Below are positions 17,135 to 57,603 of a DNA stretch of 64,000 nt, piece by piece. The translations under genes and the position numbers were made by a program. Numbering within the stretch: the first letter of the stretch is position 1; every line of letters starts with the position of its first letter. Where the stretch lies: positions 448,001-512,000 of the forward strand of contig JBHLNF010000001.1 in the NCBI GenBank assembly GCA_048937405.1. Reading direction: 5' to 3'. The notes below the pieces were generated by a model. It was not told the origin of the DNA, did no database searches, and saw only the letters and a program-made list of their open reading frames with translations. Origin of the DNA: Promethearchaeota archaeon. GTDB lineage: Archaea > Asgardarchaeota > Lokiarchaeia > Sigyniarchaeales > SOKP01.

Positions 17135-18163
17135 ATGAAAAGATTTAATGAAAGATTATCTCTTGGAAAGCTCAATCTCAAATATTTAGCCCAGCTACTT
17201 TCAAATATTGATATAAATGATAAAAGAGTAATAATGGGATCGAAAATTGGTGAAGATGCTGCAGTCATAGATATACCTGGGAAGAATTATTTAGTTACTA
17301 AAACAGATCCAATTACTTTTGCAACTGATGAGATTGGTTATTATGCAGTAATTGTGAATGTAAATGATCTTGTGTGTACAGGAGCTAGACCAAAGTGGTT
17401 TCAATCAACAATTTTATTACCAGAAGACTATACGACAAAAGAAATGATTGAAAGTATATTTAATGATATCCATAATACTTGTAAATCTATAGGAATAACG
17501 GTTGTTGGGGGTCATACAGAAATCACTCCAGGATTAGATAGACCAATTATAATTGGATCTTTAATAGGAGAAGTAGAAAAGAATAAACTTGTACTTAGTT
17601 CAGGTGCAGAACCAGGAGATGCACTTATTCTTACAAAAGGTATTTTTATTGAGGGTACATCTATTATAGGACGTGAAAAAGAAAATGAATTACTTCAGAA
17701 AGATTTCAGCCAGGATTTCATAGAAAAATGTAAATCTTATTTGTATAATCCTGGAATAAGTGTAGTTAAAGAGGCTTTTTTAGCAAATGATAATTTTGAA
17801 ATAAAAGCAATGCATGATCCTACAGAGGGAGGATTAGCTACAGGAATTGCTGAAATGACTGTTGCTTCTAAAACAGGGGTATTAATTGAAATAGATAAAA
17901 TAAAAATATTGCCTGAACCTCTAAAACTAAGTAAAACTTTTAATTTAAATCCATTAGGTACAATCTCTTCAGGTTCTTTGTTAATTGCGATTGATAATGA
18001 TTATAGTATAGAATTATTAGATTTATTAAATAAAAATAAGATAAATGCAGAAAAAATAGGAGTTTTTACCTCTATGAAGTATGGTTTGAAAATTAAAGAA
18101 AAAAATGGAAGATTATCTGATTTAAAATACTCTGAGAAAGACGAAATAACCAAAATTATATAA
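17135..18163 (+). CDS. AIR synthase-related (PurM/HypE/ThiL superfamily) protein
   Basis: GEDAAV, KTDPIT, VNDL, GGHTEIT, MHDPTEGGL. Confidence 0.88.
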   Translation: MKRFNERLSLGKLNLKYLAQLLSNIDINDKRVIMGSKIGEDAAVIDIPGKNYLVTKTDPITFATDEIGYYAVIVNVNDLVCTGARPKWFQSTILLPEDYTTKEMIESIFNDIHNTCKSIGITVVGGHTEITPGLDRPIIIGSLIGEVEKNKLVLSSGAEPGDALILTKGIFIEGTSIIGREKENELLQKDFSQDFIEKCKSYLYNPGISVVKEAFLANDNFEIKAMHDPTEGGLATGIAEMTVASKTGVLIEIDKIKILPEPLKLSKTFNLNPLGTISSGSLLIAIDNDYSIELLDLLNKNKINAEKIGVFTSMKYGLKIKEKNGRLSDLKYSEKDEITKII

Positions 18164-54707: not shown

Positions 54708-54992
54708 TTTTTAATTACTTTTTAAGTTATAAAGAGAGAATTTCATGTCCTATTCTGAGATATGCAACTGAAAAATTACCAAAGGAAATGAGACTATAAT
54801 TATTGAGTCGGTAGCTCTTATTGTTTCTAATTCTATTACCTTTTAATATAGTATATTATATTTGTTAAGAAATACATTTAATTTGATATTAATAATCAAC
54901 TAAGTTAAGGAACTTAATGTAAAAAAAAGGTGATTATTAAAATTCATAAATGAGAAAAATACTTTCAATGGAAATTAGTTATATTATTACTA

Positions 54993-55874
54993 TTGTTTCT
55001 ATTGCCATTCGCTTTGATTCTCAATATTCCTATTAGTACTGCAAATAATAATGCAATACTAAACAATTTTGAAAAAGTCTATCATTTAGAATACTTTTTG
55101 CGATTCTCACCCACTAAAGATGGTTATTCTGAAACTAAATATGCTTTAGATTTTGAAAAATATAATGAAAGTGGAGAATCCTACATAAAAGTTTCAATTT
55201 ATTATGAAGACCTACAATTAACTATATTTAATGATAATTTTAGTTATATCATTTCACTTTCCTCTCGAGAAATACTTGAAGCAAGTGATAATGATTATAG
55301 TGAATATCTTTTAGGCACCCATACAGAGTTATTCTTAAAACCGTCAGAGTTTGAGAATTCTAATAAAATTCGCATCGATGAACCGTTGACTTTTTCTGGT
55401 TATCTTATAGATTATCAAGATCCTCAATCCCTTAGAAGTGACGTAACTTTTAATTACATGGGAATAGAACAATACACTTTAAATTTGCAATATAATTTTA
55501 CAGCTTACCATTATAAAGTTACACATGTACTATGGTCAGAAGGAGATTTCTGAGATACTTACTACATTGACGTCGATTATTATTTTGATAATAATACAGG
55601 GATCCTCTTGGCAGAAAAAGTTTATGGTTATTTGTATCATTATAAATCTGATTCGATTTCACATGAAATTTATATTACCCGTACTCTCGCTCTAATTAAT
55701 CAAACAACATTATTGAATTCTTATAAGGCGATGAATATAGATCGAAATCCCTCAGATGAACCTGATGAAACAAAAAGACTTGATTGGAATTATTCTATCC
55801 TTCTTATATTCTTATCAGTTTGGATTTCGCTGTTATATAATGGAAAAAAAATAATAAAAAAAAATAGGAATTAA
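54993..55874 (+). CDS. Secreted/membrane-anchored protein with in-frame TGA (candidate selenoprotein, or pseudogene)
   Basis: ORFs 54993-55553 and 55608-55874 share one frame, joined across TGA 55551-55553 (EGDF*DTYYIDVDYYFDNNTGILL). Hydrophobic N-terminus; C-terminal TM plus basic tail. Confidence 0.6.
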
Positions 55875-55878
55875 ATCA

Positions 55879-55916
55879 ATGAAACCGCGTTATAAACCTT
55901 TGGAAACGCGATGGAG
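55879..55916 (+). promoter_or_regulatory. Eukaryote-type SECIS-like hairpin
   Basis: A-UGAA / ACCGCGUUAU / AAA / CC-UUU-GG / AAACGCGAU / GGAG, beginning 4 nt after the stop codon of the TGA-containing gene. Confidence 0.45.
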
Positions 55917-56130
55917 AGAAAGGAATGCCCCTTTTTAGTTCCATTCTATACCACCTTTTTTTCTATAATTATTTTGGATCATATACATATAAAAATCGAT
56001 AAAATGAAAGATTTCATCTTAAAAAATTATTCTATAGAAAAAAATTTATATGATATTTTTCCCTTTCTAAATTACGAATTTTGATATTATAAAAACTCAA
56101 GTGTTTTATAAAGTAAGAATTCGCAATATC

Positions 56131-56263
56131 GGCAAAGTGGCGTAGCCCGGAGTGCATTGGAATATTCCCGATGACGGGTAGGAACGCACTAGAATCATCA
56201 GAATTACTGATAATGGTGAAACTGAAGATCTAGGTATCGTGAGTTCAAATCTCACCTTTGCCA
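56131..56263 (+). tRNA. tRNA-Phe (GAA) with two non-canonical introns (56151-56181, 56193-56220)
   Basis: GGCAAAG/CTTTGCC acceptor stem and GTGAG-TTCAAAT-CTCAC T arm. Removing two BHB-type introns gives a 74-nt cloverleaf with CTAGA-CTGAAGA-TCTAG. Confidence 0.88.
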
Positions 56264-56343: not shown

Positions 56344-57603
56344 CTATTTCCATTTTTGCCTTAAATCCTTGATTATTTTCTCCCCATAAAAATTCATTTT
56401 TTTTTTTCTTTCTTTAGATAATCCAGTGTAATTATCATCATACGTCAACATCTTTTCAATCTCCTTAATAAGAGATTCACTACCTACATCATAACCATAT
56501 TTGATACACAATTTTTCCAAATCATCTCTGTATTTAAAGGAATAATTTACTCTTTTATCTTTGTAAATCCTCTGTAACTCCTTTTCTATTTTTACTCGCT
56601 TCTTAGGATCACTGATACTCTTTAACACTAATCCAAAAGTTTCCACTCGGTATTCCCATTTTTTAGGTTTTACCATATATAGGAATTTACTCACATTACC
56701 TTTAGCTTCTAATCCTGTAGTAAAAGTATTTTTTCCTTTAACAGGAGAGATTTTAACAGTCTCAATCCCATTAGCTTTACAAAGGAATTTAAAATCTTCT
56801 AGTAATGGAAAAGAGGCGTTATTAAAGCTAATATGTAAAGTTTTATTATGTTTATGAATATGAATTGAGCCATCTGTATCAACTAATCTTCTTATTGCTA
56901 CTAAATGAAATTCCTTGTTTTTTTTAATCCAATTTGGTACTTTTATTTGATTTTCTTTTTTATCTCCTGATTTATGTCCTTTTTTAATTAATGCTTCAAT
57001 AATTTTTTTCCTATGGACTGAAAGTTTAATTGCATCTGCTTCTTTTGGTTCAAATATCCTTGGTCTTTTTTTCAATGTTTTTTTCATTAAATCATAAACA
57101 TATTTAATGTATTGTGGTTCTTGAGATTCATTCAGTGTAATTTTGTATTCGCTTTTACTGCATGGGATAGTTCCATCACCAAGACCAATACAAATCATCT
57201 CTACTAATTCCTTATTTTCTACAAGTGGCTCATTAGGATTTTCTTTGAATTCCAAATCGTTTTTATCTTGTTCTTGTAAATATTCCTTTATTCTTATTTT
57301 TTCAAGTTGCTTCTTAATAGTGTCATTCTCCTTTTGATGGGAAGAGACTTCTTTTTTAGAATTTTCTTTAACATTTTCTTTTCTTTTAAATTTCATTTCA
57401 AATTGATAGATATCAGATTTGTCTTCATCATTAAATTGAAATTTAGTATAATTATTTTTAATTAAATCTTTTTTTCTATCAAGAGAATTGACCTTTTTAT
57501 CAAAAAATTCTTCATCTTTCTCCTTTTTATTTTTAGCTTTTAAATTATAGCGTTTATTAACAAATTCTTTATTATTATAATCTTTCATCAAATTATACTT
57601 CAT
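56344..57603 (-). CDS. Free-standing double-motif LAGLIDADG (DOD) endonuclease-like protein with K/E-rich N-terminus
   Basis: MICIGLGDGTI and AIRRLVDTDGSI motifs, KKGHKSGDK, ISFNNAS. Confidence 0.8.
   Translation of the reverse strand: MKYNLMKDYNNKEFVNKRYNLKAKNKKEKDEEFFDKKVNSLDRKKDLIKNNYTKFQFNDEDKSDIYQFEMKFKRKENVKENSKKEVSSHQKENDTIKKQLEKIRIKEYLQEQDKNDLEFKENPNEPLVENKELVEMICIGLGDGTIPCSKSEYKITLNESQEPQYIKYVYDLMKKTLKKRPRIFEPKEADAIKLSVHRKKIIEALIKKGHKSGDKKENQIKVPNWIKKNKEFHLVAIRRLVDTDGSIHIHKHNKTLHISFNNASFPLLEDFKFLCKANGIETVKISPVKGKNTFTTGLEAKGNVSKFLYMVKPKKWEYRVETFGLVLKSISDPKKRVKIEKELQRIYKDKRVNYSFKYRDDLEKLCIKYGYDVGSESLIKEIEKMLTYDDNYTGLSKERKKKMNFYGEKIIKDLRQKWK

Follow-up and report, generated by a model that had tools for sequence, protein, structure and literature searches.

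A probable Lokiarchaeal selenoprotein family with conserved in-frame UGA codons and a eukaryote-like 3' SECIS element

In this study, one gene was analysed in a 64,000-nucleotide stretch of DNA from a Promethearchaeota archaeon (G000:C7:448001-512000; hereafter the window), which belongs to an assembly of 4.47 Mb in 29 contigs with approximately 29% GC. The gene lies on the plus strand, and its frame at 54993-55874 comprises 293 codons broken only by TGA 55551-55553, as a preliminary description of this DNA had stated and as the sequence confirms. When the frame is extended upstream (54951-55874) to a second in-frame TGA at 54951-54953, just ahead of a hydrophobic segment, TGA 55551-55553 is still the sole interruption between that 5' TGA and the TAA at 55872-55874. 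An ATG at 54950 is one base off the gene's frame, beside a run of five A residues (A5). The region 54929-55942 is best explained as one monocistronic gene for a selenoprotein of about 306-310 residues, and it very probably represents an uncatalogued Lokiarchaeal family in which UGA 55551 is read as selenocysteine (Sec, U) through a eukaryote-like selenocysteine insertion sequence (SECIS) at the 3' end. The features of the gene are as follows.

54929..54934, plus strand: GGTGAT, a Shine-Dalgarno-like motif kept in the family; putative ribosome-binding site.
54942..54944, plus strand: ATT, candidate near-cognate start, three codons 5' of TGA 54951.
54951..54953, plus strand: 5' in-frame TGA, probable second Sec codon (U-E-K-Y in the window), kept in 25 of 26 loci.
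54972..55022, plus strand: N-terminal hydrophobic helix, candidate signal peptide or signal anchor (translation K-LVILLLLFLLPFALIL; helix in the AlphaFold2 model).
Ending at 55043, plus strand: S-T-A / N, a small-x-small site after the N-terminal helix; putative cleavage site.
55083..55697, plus strand: beta-rich ectodomain, residues 44-248, modelled as a LolA/LprG/YmcC-like half-barrel (AlphaFold2, Foldseek, VIA-align).
55551..55553, plus strand: internal TGA, very probable Sec codon at residue 200 (W-S-E-G-D-F-U-D-T-Y-Y), in a conserved alignment column.
55785..55871, plus strand: C-terminal transmembrane helix (AlphaFold2) with the basic tail KKIIKKNRN, kept in all full-length homologues.
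55872..55874, plus strand: TAA stop, sharing one base with the end of the 5' strand of helix I.
55867..55942, plus strand: SECIS element of the Loki/Asgard eukaryote-like type II form (conservation, covariation).

DNA was compared from 26 distinct homologous loci with about 22-94% identity. An in-frame TGA was present inside the domain at every locus, and at 25 of them it occupied one alignment column (…G-x-x-U…, then the conserved D-Y-Y-F-D-x-x-T-G). The codon at this site was always TGA, never TAA or TAG, and the column held TGA in all 13 aligned full-length genes. The most distant homologue, L067 (L067:2378-3405; 22% identity), has Pro at the Sec column, which is the only sense residue found there, and an in-frame TGA approximately 35 residues downstream; it retains the 5' TGA (U-A-G-R-C) and the SECIS, which suggests that the Sec position migrated within the family. 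A search of 5.8 billion clustered proteins returned 15 homologues, of which 14 (approximately 183 aa) stop exactly one residue before the TGA column. P0001, the sole full-length protein homologue, shows W at the column, where its DNA has TGA, translated with table 4. Exhaustive HMMER searching of 1.84 billion representatives yielded 23 matches: N-terminal pieces ending at the TGA, C-terminal pieces and P0031, a 570-aa repeat protein that was rejected as a spurious low-complexity match. The databases annotate the family everywhere as a hypothetical protein of approximately 183 aa. Moreover, every full-length genomic match among 160 class-level and 399 phylum-level genomes carries an in-frame TGA. 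The family was present in 15 of the 399 Asgard species genomes, all of one order (13 of 133 in family f1 and 1 of 14 in family f2), and, as far as searched, it is restricted to that one order of Promethearchaeia (Lokiarchaeia).

The sequence past the internal TGA evolves as in-frame coding DNA, with purifying selection on both sides of the codon. Between the window and L020, the differences 3' of the TGA fall 6, 2 and 24 times at codon positions 1, 2 and 3, with 18 synonymous versus 10 non-synonymous codon changes. At least 11 residues downstream of the TGA are invariant, including D208, Y209, F211, T215, G216, A220, E221, R243 and N249. Contigs from two other samples, one of them from another study, are identical to the window over 55113-55990 (they do not cover 54935-54963), so the internal TGA is not an assembly error. 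The preliminary description had proposed a new selenoprotein and had pointed to the residue that related genomes carry at the UGA as one comparison to make. The TGA at all 26 loci, with the single apparent Trp explained by the translation table, and the coding constraint downstream bear this proposal out.

The AUGA at 55879-55882 begins 4 nt past the TAA, and the 3' element of approximately 76 nt around it is made up of the following parts.

55867-72 with 55937-42, plus strand: helix I, GGAAUU with AGUUCC.
Between helix I and the core, plus strand: internal loop AAAUCA.
55879-82, plus strand: core, 5' side, AUGA.
55883-91 with 55905-13, plus strand: helix II, 9 positions.
Between the strands of helix II, plus strand: apical loop AUAAACCUUUGGA, with unpaired AAA at 55894-96 and a CC/GG mini-stem (55897-98 with 55902-03).
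55914-17, plus strand: core, 3' side, GAGA (GA at 55914-15).
55919-34, plus strand: small hairpin, AAAGG-AAUGCC-CCUUU.

With a covariance model, the element was found after all 25 loci for which 3' DNA was available (E 3e-26 to 6e-5). The counts of covariation come from a 21-locus alignment that was fitted to the structure model and therefore leans towards the structure: 92.1% of cells pair, 17 of the 24 pairs show double changes, and 72 cells carry double changes versus 24.9 +/- 5.0 after shuffling, none of 500 shuffles reaching 72. When the partners were slid by 1-3 columns, pairing fell to 41-54%, and the covariation signal was judged to be real because these controls paired no better. Compensatory changes occurred at all pairs of helix I and helix II; in helix II, double changes were present at all 9 pairs and 89% of cells paired. 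The same was seen by eye in the variants of helix II (AAUCGCGUU/AACGCGGUU, GGCUACGUU/AACGUGGUU, ACCAAUUUC/GAAAUAGGU or AGCUUAUUU/AAAUAAGCU) and of helix I (GGAAUU/AAUUCC, AAGGAG/CUCCUU and AGAAGUA/UACUUCU). Furthermore, RNAalifold recovered helix I, helix II and the small hairpin. Of 21 aligned rows, 20 have ATGA and L076 has GTGA; the GA after helix II was present in all rows, the AAA was invariant, and the CC/GG mini-stem was replaced by UA pairs in five rows.

The position of the stop codon relative to the AUGA ranges in relatives from 22 nt before it (L009) to 14 nt after it. The stop is the UGA of the AUGA core itself in L016-L018 (L016:1944-2023, L017:1148-1227, L018:791-870), lies within the apical loop in L012 and L010 and falls within the 3' arm in L011. 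Because the stop codon wanders across the element in this way, the RNA is conserved independently of the reading frame. Coding sequence and SECIS overlap in L016, L017, L018, L012, L010 and L011. The preliminary description had recognised a hairpin 4 nt after the TAA with a type II SECIS layout, and this call has held, the element being conserved, covarying and matched by the SECIS of an mvhD gene (below). Its core was placed as found here, but the element is longer, spanning 55867-55942, with helix I and a second small hairpin as further parts. Likewise, the helix that had been put at about 10 nt exists, but it has 9 positions, of which 7 pair in the window copy. The alternative hairpin that had been thought to overlap the 3' arm proved to be the small hairpin AAAGG-N6-CCUUU, a conserved part of the element and not a competing fold. 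Rfam release 15, searched over 55780-56000 with a threshold as loose as E 10, returned no SECIS; its matches to SNORD97 and several miRNA models were discarded as noise. A 33-nt A-rich segment at 55844-55877, in which the 5' strand of helix I lies and the element begins, is shared, at 3-4 mismatches, by several unrelated metagenome contigs, and this produces a spike in depth; these matches may be 5' halves of related elements or plain low-complexity sequence.

A model (R1) built from ten close family members only was run on the whole 4.47-Mb genome. Its best non-self match was C13:236017-236091 (31.8 bits, E 5.5e-4), which directly follows an MvhD/FlpD gene that has two TGAs in frame. Each of the four Sec-mvhD genes in the genome is followed by an AUGA, a 9-bp helix whose return strand, also of 9 bp, lies beyond an A-rich loop, then GA(C/G), a small hairpin and helix I as the closing stem. 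In addition, the 3' untranslated region (UTR) of selD carries an element of type II, which reads AUGA, AAUGAGCU, U-AAA-C and a mini-stem, GGCUUGUU and GA. A hand-written descriptor (AUGA, 9-position helix, AAA loop, GA, helix I), about half of whose raw matches are noise, found 38 matches in the genome versus 11-20 in shuffled sequence; approximately 11 of these also have the small hairpin, and they include the selD and mvhD elements and that of the gene under study. The comparison confirmed that the 3' element is of the same class as the known Loki-type, eukaryote-like type II SECIS.

Outside the window, the descriptor scan also gave further full-architecture Loki SECIS elements at C7:578800, C7:839657, C16:26673, C16:26212, C19:95112 and C19:133272. 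Also outside it, a SECIS-like element at G000:C7:547306-547385 (L027) consists of AUGA, AAUCUUUUA, AUAAAAAUUAG, UAAAAGAUU and GA, and the open reading frame (ORF) upstream of it has two adjacent in-frame TGAs (...AVHAD-U-U-ADV...); this ORF may be another uncatalogued selenoprotein.

The genome contains the machinery for Sec, whose presence the preliminary description had left for confirmation. SepSecS was present (474 bits), and a SelB-like factor lies 6 kb from it (231.8 bits); this factor and a PSTK-like protein (154 bits) scored below curated cut-offs, one of which was built for bacteria. The selD gene has one in-frame TGA, with U in KIHG-U-SCK. A tRNA-Sec directly upstream of SepSecS (G000:C7:230420-230580) was recognised by eye; its acceptor stem has 9 bp, and its anticodon loop is CUUCAAA (UCA). 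Its Rfam score was only 23.9 bits, and ARAGORN found no tRNA-Sec, also with introns allowed; the top Rfam tRNA-Sec match was the window's tRNA-Gly and was set aside. The tRNA-Sec gene seems to hold inserted segments in the D-arm and T-arm regions. An intron-containing tRNA-Sec has been described for Lokiarchaeota, which fits the tRNA seen here (Mariotti 2016, PMC4989117). TGA closes 266 of 1822 long frames in the genome (15%), so it is also an ordinary stop codon in this organism. A SelD/AIR-synthase-related paralogue within the window at 17168-17938 on the plus strand (G000:C7:465168-465938) matches TIGR00476 with 93.7 bits, below the cut-off, and its frame contains no stop; rather than selD, it is probably an enzyme of the PurM superfamily.

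The product is probably exported and membrane-anchored, with an N-terminal helix, a beta-rich domain and a C-terminal transmembrane helix with a basic tail. This arrangement, which had already been suggested in the preliminary description, fits both the sequence and the AlphaFold2 model. The N-terminal segment is hydrophobic in all homologues, and the C-terminal transmembrane segment is conserved in all full-length ones. The model, built on a 13-sequence alignment (predicted local distance difference test, pLDDT, 67; predicted template modelling score 0.63), has a helix at residues 2-23, strands between 44 and 248 and a helix at 278-305. The predicted beta sheet runs across the UGA site, with the C-terminal membrane helix beyond it, and Sec200 is modelled in a turn between strands 182-194 and 202-212. 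Foldseek against the PDB gave LolA, LolB, LprG, LppX, LmcA, MucB/RseB and YmcC-like proteins (probability 0.96-1.0, E of approximately 1e-4, template modelling score 0.2-0.43). VIA-align against 48,161 chains gave Z scores of 9.2 (4fvs), 8.9 (LmcA) and 7-8 (LolA, LolB, MucB), against a stated background of 7-8. The language-model neighbours of the N-terminal fragment were clusters of LolA, MucB_RseB and DUF2092 (0.87-0.89). With moderate confidence, these models point to a LolA-like fold of the ectodomain. Pfam gave no family match for the read-through protein, and Zn_dep_PLPC, its sole match (E 0.084), was rejected.

In distant members, G-C-x or Y-G-C precedes the internal UGA to give C-x-U or C-U, a context indicative of selenenylsulfide chemistry. 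A defined site is suggested by polar residues that are conserved, namely H44, E46, R140, D142, E143, H186, D208, E221, R243 and N249. No CxxU or UxxC motif at the N-terminus of a helix in a thioredoxin fold was found, the predicted domain being all-beta; the U-x-x-C lies within the first few residues, ahead of the membrane helix, and the internal Sec lies in a beta turn. It had been noted earlier that the protein lacks a CxxC-like context, and this is true of the window copy, whereas most relatives have U-x-x-C at the 5' UGA and the distant ones have C-x-U or C-U internally.

These observations are consistent with a mechanism in which the 3' SECIS, with its helix I, AUGA/GA kink-turn core, 9-bp helix II, AAA bulge, mini-stem and extra small hairpin, together with the SelB-like factor and Sec-tRNA, would let the ribosome read UGA 55551 as selenocysteine and not as a stop. 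The ectodomain, whose model resembles hydrophobic-ligand binders of the LolA/LprG type, would be extracytoplasmic, and the basic tail would be cytoplasmic. Since a Cys precedes the Sec in distant relatives (G-C-x-U), Sec might tentatively be taken as a redox or soft-ligand centre that acts on a hydrophobic or envelope-borne substrate. Membrane topology, signal cleavage and function are all predicted here.

Several points weigh against this reading. The usual supporting, though not defining, signature of a selenoprotein is a homologue with Cys aligned to the UGA, and no full-length homologue with Cys at the UGA was found among the 5.8 billion clustered proteins, the 1.84 billion representatives and the 399 Asgard genomes. 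The window protein has no Cys of any kind. In the window copy of the SECIS, C.A and A.G stand at the base of helix II, and GGAG stands where the family has UGAG; these weakened letters are identical in the contigs from other samples. Moreover, the fold call depends on a model of medium confidence (pLDDT 67) with scores barely above background, and both Sec insertion and expression are predicted. A true stop at UGA 55551, or leaky read-through without Sec, would give a secreted main product of approximately 200 residues, with the downstream frame as a separate or just occasionally translated extension and the 3' element as a terminator or stability structure. Gene callers give products of approximately 183 aa in all databases, as this would predict, and the element ends in a hairpin and an oligo-U stretch that could also serve termination. 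However, no start codon of its own opens the downstream frame of 106 codons, which is under stronger constraint than the upstream part and encodes both the remainder of the predicted beta sheet and the membrane anchor. In addition, the codon at the site is always TGA, and the 3' element carries the AUGA/AAA/GA signature and cross-matches the mvhD SECIS, all of which makes a true stop or leaky read-through without Sec very improbable. The preliminary description had regarded a decaying gene or a sequence error as a real alternative, in which mutation or a homopolymer miscall would have created the two TGAs and the off-frame ATG 54950. This ATG does lie one base out of frame beside the A5 run, and in the window copy the Cys of U-x-x-C is gone and the SECIS is slightly weakened. 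Nevertheless, both TGAs, in the same frame relation, are found again in 25 independent loci that come from different assemblies and studies (with the same 5' arrangement at L089 and 24 further loci), L089 has an identical A5 run, other-sample contigs are identical over the internal TGA, and purifying selection acts on both sides of it, so this alternative is refuted in practice.

The 5' TGA is kept at all loci other than L088, and the surrounding sequence shows a constant arrangement. A Cys stands at +3 from it (U-x-x-C) in 14 loci and within +2 to +5 in 18, encoded by both TGT and TGC. In L089, from an independent assembly and with 94% protein identity, the A5 run and the frame are the same, and TGC is present where the window has TAC (Tyr). 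In L076, an in-frame 3-nt deletion lies between the 5' TGA and the Cys codon. The use of both Cys codons and the in-frame indel argue that the stretch from the 5' UGA to the Cys is translated. The codon at -3 is ATT, ATC or ATA in 22 of 25 loci, 6-7 nt past GGTGA[TG]; this motif lies 15-16 nt before the 5' TGA in most homologues, and its GTG (54930-54932 here) is in frame in about half. An in-frame TAA stands directly 5' of codon -3 in L022, L009 and L010. In five loci (L009, L010, L076, L078, L079), the frame contains no ATG, GTG or TTG between the upstream stop and a point 26-33 codons after the 5' TGA, so that the first canonical start comes only once the entire hydrophobic helix has been passed. 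The 5' leader motif, searched for across the genome, occurred at this gene only.

The chances are slightly better than even that the 5' UGA is read as Sec. The simplest single reading of the region is initiation at AUU, AUC or AUA (or at an in-frame GUG or AUG where present) with Sec at about codon 4. In the window, initiation would occur at the non-AUG codon AUU 54942 or at the in-frame GUG 54930, and the 5' UGA would be decoded via the same 3' SECIS to give M-x-K-U-x-x-(C/Y) on the cytoplasmic side of the first helix. The fuller proposal, in which a single 3' SECIS serves both UGAs as Sec codons, the first at about codon 4 after an AUU, AUC or AUA start, is a serious possibility with a little under an even chance. 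Against it, GGTGAT seldom precedes ATG in this genome, TTG is found at +6 in L016, L017, L019, L020 and L022, an ATG follows just after the 5' TGA in L021 and L087, and the 5' TGA is missing in L088. To our knowledge, non-AUG initiation and Sec decoding at about codon 4 are unprecedented in archaea. Alternatively, an undecoded 5' UGA would be the stop of a tiny conserved leader ORF (AUH-x-x-UGA, H being A, C or U, or GUG...UGA), which would gate or couple translation from a main start downstream, namely TTG at +6 in several relatives, ATG at +1 or +4 in L021 and L087, and TTG 54993 in the window. The TTG at +6 gives ideal M-K-R/I signal peptides in the five loci that have it, ATG stands right after the TGA in L021 and at +4 in L087, and L088 dispenses with the 5' TGA. 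However, a downstream start is hard to place in the five loci with no canonical start until 26-33 codons past the TGA, and the window, L012 and L013 have TGG at +6; the Cys at +3, kept with TGT and TGC, and the in-frame 3-nt indel of L076 also speak for translation. A leader ORF is thus rather unlikely, although it deserves consideration. Far less probable is a start at an xUG that overlaps the 5' TGA (ATG 54950 in the window) followed by a +1 shift within the first few codons. In every locus an A, G or T stands before the 5' TGA and always creates an ATG, GTG or TTG, and the frame so opened hits a stop after 3-5 codons in L009, L010 and L011. However, the preceding codon is nearly always AAA or AGA, so an A at this place is expected by composition; a common slippery site is not present, and the shift would fall at codon 2 in L013, L016 and L080.

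Were Sec to be inserted at both UGAs, production of the entire exported protein would be tied to selenium supply through the early UGA. Furthermore, the cytoplasm-facing M-x-K/R-U-x-x-C tip might provide a second redox site, on the opposite side of the membrane to the Sec of the ectodomain.

The selenoproteins reported from Asgard archaea comprise seven families, all found by homology (Huang et al. 2024, PMC11227280), namely SelD, FrhA/VhuU, HdrA, FrhD/MvhD and the Prx-like, AhpF-N-like and DsbA-like families (PMC11227280). Mariotti et al. 2016 likewise worked from known families or Cys homologues (PMC4989117), and a 2026 review adds no further Asgard selenoprotein family. The present family is absent from the seven listed, and text searches gave no description of it. 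Since the published selenoproteomes relied on homology to known selenoproteins or their Cys forms and this family has no Cys form, it would have been missed. The recoding mechanism itself is known; new are the family, its occurrence in the Sec form only, the fold and location predicted for it, and the 5' UGA. As in the known Asgard selenoproteins, an in-frame UGA in Sec-utilising Lokiarchaeia is combined with a 3' element of the eukaryotic SECIS-like (eSECIS-like) kind, and one element would serve more than one UGA per mRNA, as in hdrA-mvhD. In contrast to those proteins, the family has no sequence or fold relationship to them and no Cys-form homologues, and its product is predicted to be an extracytoplasmic, membrane-tethered beta half-barrel, not a thioredoxin-like protein or a metalloenzyme.

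The layout found here matches the published lokiSECIS, or Asgard eSECIS-like element with its type I and II forms (PMC4989117; PMC11227280). Like a type II lokiSECIS, the element has a 3' UTR site, an AUGA_GA core, a helix II of approximately 9 bp, unpaired adenines with a mini-stem and a closing helix I, and the mvhD and selD elements of this genome have the same overall layout, with the small hairpin on the 3' side as well. It differs in that it serves an unlisted family, carries GGAG instead of UGAG and two non-Watson-Crick positions at the helix II base in the window, contains the stop codon in some relatives and probably serves a UGA approximately 930 nt upstream at about codon 4. As regards the fold, model residues 37-251 align with LolA, LolB, LprG, LppX, LmcA, RseB-MucB and YmcC-like proteins (VIA Z 7-9.2), which are also exported or envelope proteins. 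However, there is no sequence-profile match and the scores are near background; those proteins are bacterial and have no Sec or conserved redox Cys, and the domain described here lies between two membrane helices.

Among eukaryotes, SELENOK/S, SELENOT, SELENOM, SELENOF and SELENOP are membrane or secretory selenoproteins with 3' SECIS elements of the same architecture and motifs of the UxxC, CxU or CxxU type, and SELENOP is an extracellular protein with multiple Sec residues. The present family shows no detected homology to these proteins and has another fold, and its U-x-x-C precedes a hydrophobic helix. The family would add a predicted extracytoplasmic, membrane-tethered, non-thioredoxin selenoprotein to the lineage with the SECIS closest to the eukaryotic one, and it provides 25 covarying examples of Loki SECIS, some with the stop inside the element. 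In addition, the conserved 5' UGA raises the question of how early a SECIS-dependent UGA can be decoded and whether Lokiarchaea use non-AUG starts.

Conserved operon partners were sought and rejected, as the neighbours vary between loci, except for a HAD hydrolase upstream in two. Approximately 190 nt 3' of the SECIS, an intron-containing tRNA gene lies at 56131-56263 on the plus strand (133 nt; Rfam tRNA 41.2 bits), which was missed by ARAGORN. Beside it, at 56344-57603 on the minus strand, a Lys-rich ORF of 419 aa has a weak match to LAGLIDADG_3 (E 7e-5) and a match to DUF6513, and it may be a homing-endonuclease-like gene.

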